A stretch of DNA of 34,745 bases from a virus, in UHGV virus genome UHGV-0163337; one strand, written 5' to 3'. This document shows positions 7,500 through 29,333 of this stretch, piece after piece. The stretch's first letter is position 1. Every line of letters begins with the position of its first letter. The position numbers and the translations under genes were made by a program. The notes beneath the pieces are model-generated. The model was not told where the DNA came from and did not search any database. It saw nothing but the letters and a program-made list of their open reading frames with translations.

Positions 7500-7660
7500 G
7501 GACCTATCAGCGAGGCCCCACCGTCGTCAACTACGATGGTGCCGTAGCCGACGACATTACGTACGGTCGAAAGATAGCAGAGGCTGTTGCTGGCAATTGT
7601 TGATGTAAGCATCTCTGCTGTTCCACCCTTGAGTATGGGAAGACCGTACGTAACTTTGAA
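7500..7660 (+). ncRNA. candidate structured leader / retron msr-msd-like ncRNA upstream of RT
   Basis: Hairpin 7523-7555 (13-bp imperfect stem); nested inverted repeats TACGTACGGTC (7558-7568)/GACCGTACGTA (7642-7652) and AGCAGAG (7576-7582)/CTCTGCT (7613-7619); boundaries not determined. Confidence 0.3.
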
Positions 7661-8861
7661 TTTGAATGGTATGTTTATGGATAAATTTAAACCATACAGC
7701 AAATCCAATGCTCCTATCACAACACTTGAAAAGTTGTCAAAGGCTTTATCGATTTCTGTTGAAGAGCTTAAAGCTATTGCAGAACTACCATTAGATGAGA
7801 AATATACTCTAAAAGAAATTCCCAAAATTGACGGAAGCAAACGGATTGTCTACTCCCTGCATCCTAAAATGAGATTATTACAGAGTAGAATTAATAAACG
7901 TATTTTTAAGGAATTGGTTGTTTTTCCTTCATTTTTGTTTGGTTCAGTCCCCAGTAAAAATGATGTTTTAAATTCTAACGTCAAGCGTGACTATGTTTCA
8001 TGCGCAAAGGCTCATTGTGGAGCAAAAACAGTTCTCAAGGTGGATATAAGTAATTTTTTCGATAATATCCATAGAGATCTGGTTAGGAGCGTGTTTGAGG
8101 AGATATTGCATATTAAGGATGAGGCTCTTGAATACTTGGTGGATATATGTACTAAGGATGATTTTGTCGTACAGGGGGCCTTAACATCAAGCTATATAGC
8201 AACTTTGTGTTTATTCGCTGTTGAAGGGGATGTGGTAAGACGTGCGCAGAGGAAAGGACTTGTTTATACGCGTTTGGTAGATGATATTACCGTGTCATCT
8301 AAAATAAGTAATTATGATTTTTCTCAAATGCAAAGCCATATAGAGAGGATGCTTTCTGAGCATGACTTGCCGATAAATAAGCACAAAACTAAAATATTTC
8401 ACTGTTCATCTGAACCTATAAAAGTACATGGTTTAAGAGTTGACTATGACTCACCTCGACTACCATCCGATGAAGTCAAAAGAATCAGGGCATCTATACA
8501 TAATTTGAAATTACTGGCGGCAAAAAATAACACAAAAACAAGTGTTGCATACAGAAAAGAATTCAATAGATGTATGGGGAGAGTGAATAAGCTTGGCCGT
8601 GTTGGGCATGAAAAATATGAATCATTCAAGAAACAGTTGCAGGCAATAAAACCGATGCCATCTAAAAGAGATGTTGCTGTGATTGATGCAGCTATAAAAA
8701 GTTTAGAGTTGTCGTATTCGAAAGGTAATCAAAATAAACATTGGTATAAAAGAAAATATGATTTGACGAGATATAAGATGATTATTCTTACTCGCTCTGA
8801 ATCATTTAAAGAAAAACTGGAGTGTTTTAAATCTAGATTGGCATCTTTAAAACCATTATGA
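7635..8861 (+). CDS. retron-type reverse transcriptase
   Basis: RT catalytic box YTRLVDDITV; retron-like AKAH (NAxxH position), VDISNFFDN and KVHGL (VTG position); first ATG 7635; alternatives TTG 7587 or ATG 7671; AT-rich. Confidence 0.8.
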   Translation: MGRPYVTLNLNGMFMDKFKPYSKSNAPITTLEKLSKALSISVEELKAIAELPLDEKYTLKEIPKIDGSKRIVYSLHPKMRLLQSRINKRIFKELVVFPSFLFGSVPSKNDVLNSNVKRDYVSCAKAHCGAKTVLKVDISNFFDNIHRDLVRSVFEEILHIKDEALEYLVDICTKDDFVVQGALTSSYIATLCLFAVEGDVVRRAQRKGLVYTRLVDDITVSSKISNYDFSQMQSHIERMLSEHDLPINKHKTKIFHCSSEPIKVHGLRVDYDSPRLPSDEVKRIRASIHNLKLLAAKNNTKTSVAYRKEFNRCMGRVNKLGRVGHEKYESFKKQLQAIKPMPSKRDVAVIDAAIKSLELSYSKGNQNKHWYKRKYDLTRYKMIILTRSESFKEKLECFKSRLASLKPL

Positions 8862-9565
8862 ATGCAAATATTAGACTTCTCAAATATATTGTCGGTGTGT
8901 CGTCAGCTCTTTTTTTGATTTTTTCGCTAATTTCTCTTTTTGAAACTATTCAGAATGAAAAGCTATATGAGCGTGATATATGCTTCGATAGCCAGTGCTT
9001 AAAATTTTTTGCGGAAAAAACATCTGGTATAGTAATGTATTTTCAGGCGTTTGGATGGCTTATAACAACTTTTGTTACCGTTTTTGGTGTTATGATTGCT
9101 TTGATGACATATAACGCTGGAGTTAAAAATAATAATAATAGTAATTACACTAGTCATCTGACGATGTTTAGAGAATTTGCAAGTGCTGAGTTAACTAAAA
9201 GAAGTAGCATCTATCCAGAGAAAGTTAATTTTTTTAGATGGTATAGGGTTATGTTCCCTGAAGCGCAAGGCGGTGATATATCTGTTTCGAGAGATTATCT
9301 AGAAATAATATCTAGAATCAAATGTGTTATTGAGGAAGCCAATGCACATATTACAGAGGAAAGTAAAGACTATAAATATAAAACTCATCAGAGAAAAATG
9401 ATGGCTGTTTTGGATGAAATCGGTATATCGATTAGTAATGGGCCCAAAAATATTTTTATCGAGGTTGAGAGTCAAATTTTGGATTATATCGATACTATTA
9501 ATTTGTCATTTTGTCATTCCTCATCAGTGATAGAATTAAGTAGAGTAAAAAGGAAGTATATATAG
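8858..9565 (+). CDS. 2-TM membrane protein, putative effector partnered with the RT
   Basis: ATGA overlap with RT stop; 235 aa; hydrophobic helices ~10-28 and ~58-84, then ~150-aa soluble domain; AT-rich. Confidence 0.7.
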   Translation: MNANIRLLKYIVGVSSALFLIFSLISLFETIQNEKLYERDICFDSQCLKFFAEKTSGIVMYFQAFGWLITTFVTVFGVMIALMTYNAGVKNNNNSNYTSHLTMFREFASAELTKRSSIYPEKVNFFRWYRVMFPEAQGGDISVSRDYLEIISRIKCVIEEANAHITEESKDYKYKTHQRKMMAVLDEIGISISNGPKNIFIEVESQILDYIDTINLSFCHSSSVIELSRVKRKYI

Positions 9566-18844: not shown

Positions 18845-19630
18845 TTATGAGTGGTTTTTATTTGATGATTTGTATTCTACAACTTTTTTATTGGCGTAAA
18901 GGAATTTTGTATATGACAGAAGTATAACCAGACCTGAAGTGAAATAGACGAGGGATATTATTAATAATGTTTTTCTGTGGCTGTTATTATCTTTAATCTC
19001 CTGACTTAACCATTTGGAGTCCTCCTCGTTTAGCTGTAAGAGCTTATTGCAGGCGATTGCAGGAAGTGTGTCTGTTACAAAAGTGTTCTGCAGTCTCTTG
19101 CAATCGGCAATGCTAAAAGCTTTATAGAACTTATCTGTTTTATTGTCGGAGAACAAAAGAACCTTGTCATTATAAACATGGTACATCATATTTTTATATG
19201 GTATGGCTATGGCATCCTCTACTATGGCAGATTGCTCGTTGTGTATGCAACATGCGAAGGTAATATAAAGAATTCCGGCCAGGACTGCACTCATTGTTTT
19301 TGTGATGCATGGCGGTTCTGTTATGTCTCCCCAGAAGCGAGTAAGGAAAAAATCCGATGTTTTTAGTTTTCCATCAATCAACCCCTGCTGTATCATTTTC
19401 ACATCTTTGATGCCTGATACATTGATTCCGTTAATTATTTTAAATAGTTGAATGTCGCGCCACTCGCGGTCCAGTCTTTTTAATTTTTTATCTGAATATC
19501 CAAATTTGAAATAATGTGCAATAAGCCTCATAAGGTTACTTTTACCAAAGCTAAAAAATGCTAATACTACAAAGACCAAAAGATACAAGACGATTAGCTC
19601 CCACACATTAGTCACATTATAGCTGACCAT
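18845..19630 (-). CDS. AT-rich membrane protein of unknown function (cargo at P2 orf30 position)
   Basis: 261 aa; strong SD AAGGAGAG; hydrophobic segments at N-terminus, middle and C-terminus; opposite strand to flanking late genes; low GC. Confidence 0.65.
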   Translation of the reverse strand: MVSYNVTNVWELIVLYLLVFVVLAFFSFGKSNLMRLIAHYFKFGYSDKKLKRLDREWRDIQLFKIINGINVSGIKDVKMIQQGLIDGKLKTSDFFLTRFWGDITEPPCITKTMSAVLAGILYITFACCIHNEQSAIVEDAIAIPYKNMMYHVYNDKVLLFSDNKTDKFYKAFSIADCKRLQNTFVTDTLPAIACNKLLQLNEEDSKWLSQEIKDNNSHRKTLLIISLVYFTSGLVILLSYTKFLYANKKVVEYKSSNKNHS

Positions 19631-24899: not shown

Positions 24900-25427
24900 A
24901 TGCAGCATTTAAAAAATATTACGGCGGGTAATCCAAAAACGGTTGAACAATATCAATTGACAAAAGACTTTGATGTTGTCTGGTTTTTTTCAGAAGATGG
25001 TAAGAACTGGTACGAAGAACAAAAGTATTTTGCTGATGACACGCTAAAAATAGCGTACGACAAAGATAATATCATCCGCTATGTGGAAAAGGATGTGACA
25101 GCTATCAGACCGGATGGATTAAGTGTTGTTGAAGTGGCGGATATTACTGCTAACCGACGGGCGGACATTTCAGGGAACTGGATGTTTAAGGACGGTACAG
25201 TGATTAAACGCATTTATACGGCAGAGGAATTGCAGCAGCAGGCAGAAAACCGGAAAGCCAGACTTCTTGCAGATGCTGAATCCGTGATTTTGCCACTGGA
25301 GCGCGCTGTCAGGCTGAACATGGCAACAGATGAGGAGCGTAGCCGACTGGAAGCATGGGAACGCTACAGTGTTCTGGTCAGCCGTGTGGATCCTGCAAAT
25401 CCTGAATGGCCGGAAATGCCGCAATAA
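24900..25427 (+). CDS. G: tail fiber assembly chaperone G
   Basis: 175 aa, same as P2 gpG; immediately after H. Confidence 0.85.
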
Positions 25428-25462
25428 GTTGTATGAACTCTGGTGTGAGCTTACATATCTAT

Positions 25463-25502
25463 GGCACAGAGTAAAGCCTAATCTGACAGTCCGCTCTGTG
25501 CC
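25463..25502 (+). terminator. hairpin downstream of G (weak terminator candidate)
   Basis: 9-bp inverted repeat GGCACAGAG / CTCTGTGCC with 22-nt loop; no U-tract. Confidence 0.3.
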
Positions 25503-25606
25503 AGGAGCGGAAGTAGCTAACAGCTCTTAGTGTTGATTAATGAGGAGCAGGCCGCTATCGCTAATTCCGCTTGCTGATGTATGGTAAGTACTGATAACCT
25601 TGATTT

Positions 25607-26458
25607 ATGATACTTAGTTTATACATCATATTATGGATGATCATTATGTCGCGTAGCTTATACCCAACGACCTTGTTTCATTTTACTGAAAAGTTAGATA
25701 CCTTATTTGAGATACTTGACTCAAGTTATTTTCGAATTTCTTTCGCTAGAGAGTTTATACAAGGCCAGAGCACGAATAGAAATTTCGGTATACCGATGGT
25801 TTCATTTTGTGATATCAGGCTAACACAGCTTACCCAGCATACTGAAAGTTATGGCCATTATGGCATAGGATTATCAAAAGATTGGGCAAACGAAAATGGA
25901 CTTAATCCAGTAATTTACATGTCCAAGCACTCTTCTGTTTTTGATAATTATAATCTAGAGATTAGGCGTTTAAAAGCAGAAGTTAATAAGTTATTAAAGC
26001 ATTTGGACGAAATAAAATCTTCAGGAACAACATCTCAATTAACTAATGCAAAGCGGAAATATGACTCGGCGATTCTTAGTTACAAGAAAATTGTAGATCC
26101 TTTGCGATATATGAAAAATTACCAGGCAACTTTGAAACGACGCAATGGTCAGGAGAAACCTAACTATATTTTTGCAGATGAGAGGGAGTGGCGATTTGTT
26201 CCAGATATAGAAAAATCAATTGGAAAACCAGTGATCGCTGCTTCGAAAAATATATCAACTCAAGATGGCAAGAGAAAATATAACGAATATTATGATGATG
26301 ACAGGTTACCCTTTTCACATAAGGATATTAAATATGTCATTGTAGAGCATGAAAGTGATGTTGAAAAGATGATGGACTTTCTGCATATAAAGTATGGTTC
26401 AAAAAGTAGCTTGATTCCAAGGGTTCTCTCAACCGAATTGATAGCGAATGATATGTAA
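25607..26458 (+). CDS. AT-rich cargo protein of unknown function (possible Abi-like), P2 Z/fun position
   Basis: 283-aa ORF (alternative ATG 25646 would remove the hydrophobic N-terminal 13 aa); very low GC; no catalytic motif recognised by eye. Confidence 0.6.
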   Translation: MILSLYIILWMIIMSRSLYPTTLFHFTEKLDTLFEILDSSYFRISFAREFIQGQSTNRNFGIPMVSFCDIRLTQLTQHTESYGHYGIGLSKDWANENGLNPVIYMSKHSSVFDNYNLEIRRLKAEVNKLLKHLDEIKSSGTTSQLTNAKRKYDSAILSYKKIVDPLRYMKNYQATLKRRNGQEKPNYIFADEREWRFVPDIEKSIGKPVIAASKNISTQDGKRKYNEYYDDDRLPFSHKDIKYVIVEHESDVEKMMDFLHIKYGSKSSLIPRVLSTELIANDM

Positions 26459-26774
26459 TTTAAGCTCTGTTTTTGCCTAAATTATCTATGCAATGCTTCC
26501 TTTTTGATACTTCATCGTGCTCTTATTGTGTTTAACGCTAAAACTAACCTACTCCCCGTGTTTCACATAGACCGCTATTAGCAATGTCCGCTGCGTGCGA
26601 AGAGCGGACATTACTAACATAGTGCCCAGAAGCTTTAAGGGAAGTAAGTCAAGTCCAAAAGTGCGGTTAAAGTAATGCTAATCTTTCCATTGAATGAGTG
26701 GATTGAGTATTAGAATTACATCTCCATAGCTACTTAAGCGGATTATTTAAAATTTTAATTAAGAGGTTCTAATT

Positions 26775-27779
26775 ATGGATAGATTTGAAATAAAACTTAA
26801 TGAAATCAATGAAATTCTTTCAAAGAATCAATTGGGGCTTATCTATGATTTTATAAATGATAGAGATAATGGTCTCGTACTGCCGTTTTTTAGTAAATAC
26901 ATGGACTCTGTTCGAAAATTAGATCTGGATTTTTGCATTACAACCAACTCACATTTTCAATGCGGCATTATTTATGATGAAAAATTGATATTTATGTCTT
27001 ATGGCACATTTGATAGACTATGTAAGTTATCTGACTTGATTTTTCGGTCAGGGATGATAACAGGGAAAAGTACTAATTTAAACTTTTATGACTTGCATCT
27101 CGTTACTAATCCATTTGTTGGGTTTAACAATGAGACAAGAGAGGAAAGTGAGTCCGAATCACACTTATTTATGTTTATTCTTGATTGTCTAATGCTGTTT
27201 ATAGTTAGTCACGAAGTAGGCCATTTCATTAATAAACATGGCGACCGAGCAAAAAAGCAATCTATTGACACTATCTTTGATGATGTTTTAGGACATAAAA
27301 AAATCAATAGCGCAGAAATAATATCAAGCCACGCAAGAGAATTAGTTGCAGATGGTTTTGCTCTTAATATTGTAAAAAAACATGTACAGTCTGCATTTGA
27401 TCAGAAGGCATCTTATCTTAATAACTTGCTTGATTTTTATAGCAGCAAGGAAGGCGGAATTGCATTTTCATTGCTATTAATACTGTGCTACTTCAAACTT
27501 TCTGATGGCTTATCACCCCATGAACATTTTCAATCGACACATCCCTCAACGGCGGCACGAGTTCGATTTATTCTCAGTTGTCATATTGAATCATTAGTCA
27601 ATGAGGATGAAGAAAAAACTTTTGGATTTTACTATGGTTTAATCATAACTCAATTGAAATCAATATTTGCATCTATGGGAGATGACTTTGAGTTAACTTG
27701 GATAAAGGATACGAACTCACCTGAAATGACCGAGTGGTTTAATAATGTTTATAAAGAGCATCCAAAATGGTTAGCATAA
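26775..27779 (+). CDS. HExxH zinc-metallopeptidase-like protein (cargo), possibly Lit-like phage-exclusion protease
   Basis: 334 aa; AAGAGG SD 8 nt before ATG; HEVGH at residues 146-150 followed by ELVAD ~40 aa downstream; very low GC. Confidence 0.6.
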   Translation: MDRFEIKLNEINEILSKNQLGLIYDFINDRDNGLVLPFFSKYMDSVRKLDLDFCITTNSHFQCGIIYDEKLIFMSYGTFDRLCKLSDLIFRSGMITGKSTNLNFYDLHLVTNPFVGFNNETREESESESHLFMFILDCLMLFIVSHEVGHFINKHGDRAKKQSIDTIFDDVLGHKKINSAEIISSHARELVADGFALNIVKKHVQSAFDQKASYLNNLLDFYSSKEGGIAFSLLLILCYFKLSDGLSPHEHFQSTHPSTAARVRFILSCHIESLVNEDEEKTFGFYYGLIITQLKSIFASMGDDFELTWIKDTNSPEMTEWFNNVYKEHPKWLA

Positions 27780-28019
27780 TACCTCTTATATAATGCTGAT
27801 GGTATATTAATATTGAATTGATAATCCTGAATGTCGCTGACTTTAATAAAGCATTGAAATTAGAAAAAGTGAAGTTTTATAATGCTCTTTAATAATTCAT
27901 GTCACTCAACAGCGAAAAGCGTGAAGGTCTGCTCCTCGCTCAAAGCAGACTGTCAGAATTGATAGCGTTTGGGCTATGTAAATTGTCAGTCGGAAAATGA
28001 GTGAGTACAAATCAGGACA

Positions 28020-28046
28020 GGCGGGCGAATTGCCCGCCTTTTCTTT
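28020..28046 (+). terminator. intrinsic terminator closing the cargo island before FI
   Basis: GGCGGGC-gaatt-GCCCGCC stem-loop followed by TTTTCTTT. Confidence 0.8.
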
Positions 28047-28142
28047 ATCTGTTGTTTCATCCACTGACCAGCCAGGTCAAATAGCGTCTCATGCACTGCC
28101 CAACAGAAAATAGTTGCACCCATTAACCACGGAGTTAAACGG

Positions 28143-29333
28143 ATGAGTGACTATCATCATGGCGTGCAGGTGCTGGAGATTAACGACGGCACCCGCGTCA
28201 TTTCCACCGTATCCACTGCCGTTGTCGGCATGGTCTGTACGGCCAGCGATGCGGATGCGGAAACCTTCCCCCTCAATAAACCTGTGCTGATTACCAATGT
28301 GCAGAGCGCAATTGCAAAGGCCGGTAAAAAAGGCACGCTGGCGGCATCGTTGCAGGCCATCGCCGACCAGTCAAAACCGGTCACCGTTGTCGTGCGTGTG
28401 GAAGACGGCACCGGCGACGACGAGGAAACGAAACTCGCGCAGACCGTTTCCAATATCATCGGCACCACCGACGAAAATGGTCAGTACACCGGACTGAAAG
28501 CCCTGCTGGCGGCAGAGTCGGTAACCGGCGTTAAACCGCGTATTCTCGGTGTGCCGGGACTGGACACCAAAGAGGTGGCTGTTGCACTGGCATCAGTCTG
28601 TCAGAAGCTGCGCGCTTTCGGGTATATCAGCGCATGGGGCTGTAAAACCATTTCCGAGGTGAAAGCCTACCGCCAGAATTTCAGCCAGCGTGAGCTGATG
28701 GTCATCTGGCCGGATTTCCTCGCATGGGATACGGTCGCCAGTACCACCGCCACCGCGTATGCCACTGCCCGTGCGCTGGGTCTGCGCGCTAAAATCGACC
28801 AGGAGCAGGGCTGGCATAAAACGCTGTCCAACGTCGGGGTGAACGGTGTTACCGGCATCAGCGCGTCCGTATTCTGGGATTTGCAGGAGTCCGGCACCGA
28901 TGCTGACCTGCTTAACGAGTCAGGCGTCACAACGCTGATTCGCCGTGACGGTTTCCGCTTCTGGGGTAACCGTACCTGCTCTGATGACCCGCTGTTCCTC
29001 TTTGAAAACTACACCCGCACCGCGCAGGTGCTGGCCGACACGATGGCTGAGGCGCACATGTGGGCGGTGGACAAGCCCATCACCGCAACGCTGATTCGCG
29101 ACATCGTTGACGGCATCAATGCCAAATTCCGTGAGCTGAAAACAAACGGCTATATCGTGGATGCGACCTGCGGGTTCAGCGAAGAATCCAACGATGCGGA
29201 AACCCTCAAGGCCGGAAAACTGTATATCGACTACGACTATACACCGGTGCCTCCTCTTGAAAACCTGACCCTGCGCCAGCGTATTACCGATAAATACCTG
29301 GCAAATCTGGTCACTTCGGTTAACAGCGATTAA
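28143..29333 (+). CDS. FI: tail sheath protein FI
   Basis: 396 aa, same as P2 gpFI; MSDYHHGVQVLEIN... Confidence 0.93.
   Translation: MSDYHHGVQVLEINDGTRVISTVSTAVVGMVCTASDADAETFPLNKPVLITNVQSAIAKAGKKGTLAASLQAIADQSKPVTVVVRVEDGTGDDEETKLAQTVSNIIGTTDENGQYTGLKALLAAESVTGVKPRILGVPGLDTKEVAVALASVCQKLRAFGYISAWGCKTISEVKAYRQNFSQRELMVIWPDFLAWDTVASTTATAYATARALGLRAKIDQEQGWHKTLSNVGVNGVTGISASVFWDLQESGTDADLLNESGVTTLIRRDGFRFWGNRTCSDDPLFLFENYTRTAQVLADTMAEAHMWAVDKPITATLIRDIVDGINAKFRELKTNGYIVDATCGFSEESNDAETLKAGKLYIDYDYTPVPPLENLTLRQRITDKYLANLVTSVNSD

Follow-up and report, generated by a model that had tools for sequence, protein, structure and literature searches.

A Z/fun island of a P2-like prophage with two hairpin-bounded single-gene cassettes encoding a solo AbiGi-family protein and a Lit-like protease

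It is established that P2-like phages possess the Z/fun cargo hotspot with its inverted repeats and that prophages carry abortive-infection genes. The GenBank records AJ512676 and AJ512683 of the P2-EC 'Z-region' (Nilsson et al., 2004) both annotate a left inverted repeat and AJ512683 also a right one; papers citing Nilsson et al. (2004) gave no detail on these repeats. A 2026 survey noted a Lit homologue from just one prophage of the P2 type and regarded it as unresolved how exchange with other elements proceeds, hairpins being unmentioned there (PMC13586616). Two abortive-infection systems are the closest described relatives of the genes treated here. Lactococcal AbiG consists of two genes, is triggered by a major tail protein and blocks phage transcription (PMC13064643). 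Lit, an HExxH protease encoded by prophage e14, stays latent until the T4 Gol peptide binds and then cuts EF-Tu (PMC3014915). Here, the island at positions 25428-28142 of the virus genome UHGV-0163337 (34,745 nt, referred to as the window) was analyzed, an insert of 34% GC between G (tail-fibre assembly) and FI (sheath) in the late region of a P2-like prophage, where GC otherwise amounts to 55-57%. It harbors gene A, encoding a solo AbiGi-family protein, and gene B, encoding a predicted soluble zinc metallopeptidase (Table 1). With a probability of roughly 0.6, we interpret the locus as a Z/fun hotspot that holds two hairpin-bounded mobile cassettes, both genes being separate abortive-infection effectors.

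Two independently mobile cassettes between G and FI

The island was compared by blastn with loci carrying homologues of gene A or gene B, and a homology break at 26585-26590 was found to split it cleanly. The left part (cassette A, 25490-26590) showed 83-92% DNA identity to Pantoea agglomerans, Proteus mirabilis and two viral contigs, and the right part (cassette B, 26585-27908 or 27950) showed 80-82% to Enterobacter mori and a Pectobacteriaceae genome. Homology of cassette A ends at 26588-26592, and that of cassette B begins at 26585. An AbiGi gene was absent near gene B homologues in all eight distinct contexts examined. These were an Enterobacter chromosome, a Pectobacteriaceae integrative island, Pantoea and the viral contig L102 (each adjoining a P2-type integrase), a Vibrio campbellii array of short same-strand open reading frames (ORFs), Providencia (after ogr), a V. 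fluvialis island with NA-iREase2 and RelA_SpoT, and a metagenome-assembled genome adjoining an AAA_13 ATPase. The neighbours of gene B homologues (RelE/MqsA, AAA_21 with DUF4276, NA-iREase2 with RelA_SpoT, AAA_13, integrases and ogr) are, by gene content, typical of defence islands and prophage ends. Likewise, neither gene B nor AbiGii was found beside gene A homologues in about six contexts examined. Because of the breakpoint, the lack of any homologue context with both genes and the presence of a hairpin between the genes, the island is shown, at the level of sequence, to consist not of a pair but of two single-gene cassettes that lie head to tail and are mobile independently of each other. 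The AT-rich upstream regions move with each cassette in other genomes.

The exact proteins were present on 216 (gene A) and 232 (gene B) contigs, mostly of E. coli. In assemblies, truncated gene A was found together with intact gene B. The longest contig with the 220-aa truncated form and the longest one with the exact gene B protein are of equal length (5,092,790 bp), which suggests that gene A is decaying in some lineages and gene B is staying intact. The V. campbellii homologue of gene B (locus L006, 1-15256; 48% identical) is part of a long run of short same-strand ORFs including RelE/MqsA, which, from ORF layout alone, resembles a chromosomal integron cassette array.

An initial annotation of this DNA had described two same-strand low-GC ORFs between G and FI at the variable Z/fun locus of P2, separated by a 316-bp AT-rich spacer, closed by a strong terminator, and representing either two single-gene systems or a sensor-effector pair. 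The ORFs and the flanking domains agree with this description, and so does the profiling of GC and codon usage against the backbone that it had proposed: the cargo (25512-27926) has a GC content of 0.34 compared with 0.57 in FI and 0.54-0.59 in downstream late genes, and the GC content at third codon positions (GC3) is 0.32 in gene A and 0.28 in gene B compared with 0.68 in FI. The spacer measures exactly 316 bp (26459-26774, GC 0.37). Its length therefore stands, but the spacer itself is not a single unit, since the junction of two separately acquired cassettes falls inside it. In line with the annotation, no match of either protein to a phage structural family was obtained in profile searches. 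The start of gene A had been placed at 25607; instead, the RefSeq start at 25646 (270 aa) is most likely. As for the two organizations proposed, the homology breakpoint, the separate contexts and the internal hairpin favour two single-gene systems, and a sensor-effector pair is disfavoured.

The first ~90 nt and last ~216 nt of the island are also present, with other cargo between them, in 1307 of the 5426 complete E. coli genomes searched, whereas the whole island was found in only one of these genomes. The same flanks are shared by P2, Wphi and P2-EC phages with varied cargo, which, together with the GenBank Z-region repeats, supported the assignment to the Z/fun locus. Empty sites were identified in four IMG/VR P2-like relatives (L030, L041, L058 and L075), where the G stop codon is directly followed by the terminator and both the hairpins and the ~60-nt flanks are missing. 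Therefore, all of 25428 to ~28018 is insert and the terminator is backbone, and the whole repeat-bounded unit behaves as an insertion. The terminator hairpin (28019-28039) comprises nine pairs, seven of them G-C, with a DNA fold of -11.1 kcal/mol (z -4.1). The terminator-like hairpin with its T-run was correctly recognized in the initial annotation, but as a closing element of the island it was ruled out, being backbone sequence that is kept in empty sites. The island shares its position, the inverted repeats on its two sides and the presence of foreign ORFs of low GC with the P2 Z/fun locus and with the P2-EC Z-region inserts recorded by Nilsson et al. (2004). It differs from them in its cargo, its two stacked cassettes and its internal hairpin.

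Table 1. Features of the Z/fun island and its flanking genes in UHGV-0163337
Feature	Position	Strand	Basis
G	24900-25427		Caudo_TAP 1.5e-34
Conserved left flank, outer part of left inverted repeat	25428-25488	.	80-99% column identity over 32 distinct cargos
T1 of cassette A, GTCCGCT-ctgtgccagg-AGCGGA then agtagCTAACA	25489-25522	+	pattern match, repeats, conservation drop just after
Gene A, solo AbiGi-family protein, 270 aa	25646-26458	+	AbiGi model matches
Junction hairpin, 15-nt arms, 10-nt loop; equals T1 of cassette B (26586-26619)	26578-26619	+	breakpoint 26585-26590
Gene B, predicted soluble HExxH zinc metallopeptidase, Lit-like and M48-like, 334 aa	26775-27779	+	motifs, fold model
T2 hairpin, GTCTGCT-cctcgctcaa-AGCAGAC, right edge of cargo	27927-27950	.	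inverted T1 copy
Conserved right flank, outer part of right inverted repeat	27951-28018	.	absent from empty sites; AJ512683 annotation
Backbone intrinsic terminator, GGCGGGC..GCCCGCC and T-run	28019-28047	+	precedes FI promoter region
FI	28143-29333		tail sheath domains

Hairpins at the cassette boundaries

Two hairpin forms were distinguished, T1 with a GTGCC-type loop and T2 with a CGCTCA-type loop, T2 being an inverted copy of T1. The motif GTCCGCT-N10-AGCGGA(C) is located at 25489 and 26586 and, as an inverted variant, at 27927; five matches were obtained in the whole window compared with 0.01 expected. Read from 5' to 3', the left repeat and T1 are followed by gene A, the junction hairpin and gene B, after which come T2, the right repeat and the backbone terminator. 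The segments 25489-25522 and 26586-26619 form a 34-nt direct repeat (D2, 76% identical) that ends with CTAACA, and T1 of the 25489 region forms a 30-nt terminal inverted repeat with 27928-27957 (I2, 83% complementary). The arms of the junction hairpin constitute a further inverted repeat (I5, 93% complementary), with a DNA fold of -11.7 kcal/mol (z -5.1). When 32 distinct Z/fun cargos (the one in this window and those of 31 IMG/VR loci) were aligned, column identity was 80-99% up to the inner edge of T1, approximately 40% within the cargo and again above 80% from T2 onwards. T1, T2 and the junction hairpin lack a T-run and none of them was called as a terminator. An Rfam search of the island gave only a chance snoRNA match, and the hairpins therefore belong to no described RNA family. 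The stems appear to be sequence-conserved rather than covarying in a loop-anchored scan that is too noisy for use.

Hairpins of the same type were also observed in other islands. Other stacked islands contain an internal pair of T2 and T1 (L026, L032) or an internal T1 (L033), and the two clearest overlapping two-gene operons (L022, L025) are devoid of an internal hairpin. These hairpins also delimit cassettes that occur alone elsewhere, as seen in L014 (at the start of the cassette B homology), L002 (at its end), L009 and L106. In Pantoea and Proteus, cassette A has a T2-type hairpin at its end, whereas in this island a T1-type hairpin is found at the equivalent position and is followed by the CTAACAtagtgccc sequence that also precedes gene B in Enterobacter. 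The junction therefore resembles the product of a crossover in the shared stem, and its hairpin appears to have arisen by fusion of the one at the 3' side of cassette A with the one at the 5' side of cassette B.

Outside P2-like prophages, T1 with a aatctaatctgaca prefix was recovered with 100% identity in non-P2 E. coli islands (L112, 4012 and 7224; L113, 4012). L112 and L113 are identical to the left of T1 and divergent immediately after it. Of these islands, one is located near dynamin and RdcB genes and the other near a YeeP-like GTPase and Ag43. A 3.2-kb segment of L112 with an integrase fragment and a low-GC ETEC_3214 gene lies between T1 and a T2-like hairpin. A 38-nt T1 query matched 795 of the 5426 complete E. 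coli genomes, in intergenic DNA every time.

The arrangement is like that of integron cassettes (attC) in that single-gene units are stacked head to tail and each is bounded by an imperfect palindrome. Unlike in integrons, by inspection no RYYYAAC/GTTRRRY cores were seen around the hairpins and no intI was present in the annotation; moreover, the cassettes described here carry their own upstream regions and their hairpins measure 24 nt. Downstream of gene B, a near-consensus sigma-70-like site (27854-27883, + strand; TTGAAA-18-TATAAT, 11/12) faces the T2 hairpin and the terminator. It may have arisen by chance in AT-rich DNA or may be the start of a short transcript.

The two gene products and the surrounding prophage

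Gene A matched AbiGi in Pfam (PF10899, 7e-31) and in PADLOC (1e-41, model positions 18-259 of 260), and thus aligns over nearly the whole length of the models of one component of lactococcal AbiG (AbiGi and AbiGii). It differs from that system by the lack of AbiGii, by its Gram-negative prophage host and by a score below the equivalog cut-off. As regards AbiGii, no match of gene B was obtained in Pfam or PADLOC, and none is annotated by RefSeq in a 99%-identical prophage. Close homologues of gene A were solo wherever examined, unlike the two-gene AbiG. The predicted structure (predicted local distance difference test (pLDDT) 92) shows an alpha/beta core with a long coiled-coil helical hairpin inserted at residues 97-153. 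In 44 relatives of gene A, H12 (in LFHFT), S53-F-C55 and E179-R-E181 are invariant, and weak matches to DUF2971 were obtained in nine of them. A survey of ADP-ribosyltransferases lists AbiGi in the superfamily, close to DarT and DUF2971 (PMC12522546), and gene A may resemble these enzymes. In contrast to DarT and other ADP-ribosyltransferases, gene A has no sequence-level DarT match and no DarG-like partner, and its long coiled-coil insert is a further difference. No matches were found by Foldseek against the Protein Data Bank (PDB) or by PDB sequence search, and a literature search on the RefSeq protein accessions found nothing. Matches of gene A to PADLOC IetA and Pfam Bcl-2_BAD were discarded as coiled-coil noise.

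For gene B, a metallopeptidase fold was predicted (pLDDT 86, predicted template modelling score 0.90), with the invariant motifs HExxH at 146-150 (H146, E147, H150), ExxAD (E189..D193) and THPxxxxR (T-H-P..R, 255-262). The match to Pfam M48 (PF01435) is marginal (22.6 bits compared with a gathering score of 20.3) and the fold is M48-like. Matches to the Lit models were weak; the Lit/Peptidase U49 model PF10463 did not match gene B and matched one of 27 relatives. When the gene B family profile was aligned by hhalign with E. coli K-12 Lit, a probability of 90.9% (E 1e-6) was obtained and the three motifs were aligned. Judged by profile comparison, gene B is a remote homologue of M48 peptidases as well as of the Lit cell-death peptidase. 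Its family is very small, with only 127 members retrieved by profile search among 1.84 billion cluster representatives, and the Lit homologue of the 2026 survey possibly belongs to it. Like Lit of prophage e14 (Peptidase U49), gene B is a single prophage gene predicted to encode a soluble zinc protease of roughly 300 aa, and HExxH, E-x-x-AD and THPxxxxR occur in both in equal order. The two share ~26% identity over 132 alignable columns and differ in a 25-aa insert after the HExxH helix of gene B. The E. coli K-12 lit gene (L019, 3696-4589) is convergent to the e14 integrase, and the gene B homologues of Pectobacteriaceae (L002) and Pantoea (L003) are likewise arranged next to an integrase. 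Compared with the M48 peptidases BepA, HtpX and Ste24 (PDB 3c37), gene B has an N-terminal alpha/beta domain of its own and a mobile, defence-linked context; neither a signal peptide nor a membrane segment was detected in its sequence.

By analogy with AbiG and Lit, both genes are probably single-gene abortive-infection effectors; we infer this defence label from family membership and neighbourhood. In the proposed mechanism, cargo would be swapped by recombination at the conserved hairpins, the simplest route being short-homology recombination on 23-38 nt of shared sequence. The lysogen would express both genes and each would act separately against other phages. Gene A would be an AbiGi-type ADP-ribosyltransferase-like enzyme that, without AbiGii, modifies a host or phage macromolecule once triggered. 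Gene B would be a latent cytoplasmic zinc protease performing a Lit-like cut of an essential host factor when a phage product appears. The target of gene B is plausibly a translation factor; targets and triggers of both genes are guesses.

Over 9669-34745, the prophage that carries the insert shares 99% identity with one of E. coli O166:H15 JNE21-009, and an IMG/VR contig is 99.9% identical to the window. The JNE21-009 prophage differs from the window at the cos-adjacent (old/tin) hotspot (7587-9565, + strand). Here, the window carries a type IV retron with a reverse transcriptase (PADLOC RT_IV 8e-177; Pfam RVT_1) and a 2TM_IV effector (5e-85), and the JNE21-009 prophage has a frameshifted AAA ATPase in its place. 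The two hotspots therefore turn over independently. A 261-aa ORF in a further low-GC patch (~0.36; 18845-19630, - strand) lies between a virion morphogenesis gene and baseplate V, at the position of P2 orf30, and had no Pfam or PADLOC match.

Alternative explanations and implications

A variant of two-component AbiG, with the Lit-like protease as effector in place of AbiGii and the AbiGi-like protein in the role of sensor or antitoxin, is very improbable, since the homology breakpoint, the boundary hairpin and a 316-bp gap lie between the two genes, which were never found together in the eight gene B and about six gene A contexts outside the island. Gene B furthermore stands alone in the Vibrio cassette-like array, and truncated gene A occurs beside intact gene B in assemblies. 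These observations have to be set against the adjacent, same-strand position of the genes, the consecutive accession numbers of both proteins in E. coli assemblies, the label 'antitoxin' given to AbiGi by Pfam and the two-gene nature of canonical AbiG (PMC13064643). It also appears unlikely, although less so, that the cargo is not anti-phage and serves host fitness or virulence, or phage counter-defence or host takeover, for example through an ADP-ribosyltransferase that modifies host proteins and a protease that degrades a host defence factor. Z/fun-type hotspots do carry non-defence cargo too (10.1101/2024.10.15.618418; PMC9122126), the phage ADP-ribosyltransferases Alt and Mod of T4 serve host takeover (PMC3014915), and late read-through is possible, both genes being co-oriented with the late operon with no terminator after G. 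However, the sole characterised relatives of both families, AbiG and Lit, act in abortive infection, the cassettes move with their own AT-rich upstream regions, and gene B homologues occur in defence-island-like surroundings and at the ends of prophages rather than in early regions of phages.

With respect to the hairpins, there is a little under an even chance that they are merely selected terminators or insulators and that breakpoints fall there as the only conserved sequence, with no structural or enzymatic role. This passive reading is compatible with two mobile single-gene abortive-infection cassettes. The sequence-conserved, non-covarying stems, the common hybrid arms such as GTCCGCT..AGCAGAC, as predicted for crossovers in short homology, and the absence of a recombinase gene accompanying the cassettes are in favor of it. 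By contrast, the lack of T-runs and of terminator calls for T1, T2 and the junction, the 100% identity of the aatctaatctgaca-prefixed element in unrelated E. coli islands with divergence straight after it, and the position of T1 and T2 as inverted copies flanking the cargo like terminal repeats do not fit a merely passive role. A dedicated cassette exchange at T1 and T2, site- or structure-specific and performed by a putative enzyme that moves self-promoted single-gene cassettes, is nevertheless doubtful.

Several results weigh against the interpretation as two mobile single-gene abortive-infection cassettes. Gene A reached 58.5 bits with NCBIfam NF042957, the equivalog of lactococcal AbiGI, where the cut-off is 300, and a 2026 review reports no fold match for lactococcal AbiGi (PMC13064643). 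Gene B obtained 22.1 bits with NCBIfam Lit (cut-off 274) and is thus not a Lit equivalog; phmmer with the Lit sequence alone did not retrieve the gene B family, and PADLOC capP matches this family as weakly as Lit does. A 220-aa truncated gene A was found on 53 contigs, the multi-gene islands L034, L051, L061 and L065 contain no internal hairpin under the strict pattern, and a promoter scan gave no more sites than expected in shuffled sequence.

New here are the stacking of cassettes with a hairpin between them, the recurrence of such hairpins at cassette edges outside P2, the solo AbiGi and the very small Lit-related family. DefenseFinder and PADLOC require AbiGii for an AbiG call, and a solo AbiGi would therefore escape these catalogues; gene A and gene B represent two candidate defence genes that current catalogues would miss. 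If a solo-gene phenotype were true, AbiGi would be an effector rather than an 'antitoxin', and gene A would provide a tractable E. coli model of the ADP-ribosyltransferase-like AbiGi fold. A dedicated exchange, if true, would account for the traffic of defence genes between P2 hotspots and unrelated elements, the question raised by the 2026 survey (PMC13586616). It would also bring back a proposal that the title of Nilsson et al. (2004) implies, and may link P2 Z/fun hotspots, chromosomal islands and other mobile elements across Enterobacterales. The hairpin boundaries provide a sequence-level handle on cargo swapping between P2-like phages and unrelated islands, and the hairpin-bounded cassettes hint at how candidate phage-defence genes move among mobile elements.

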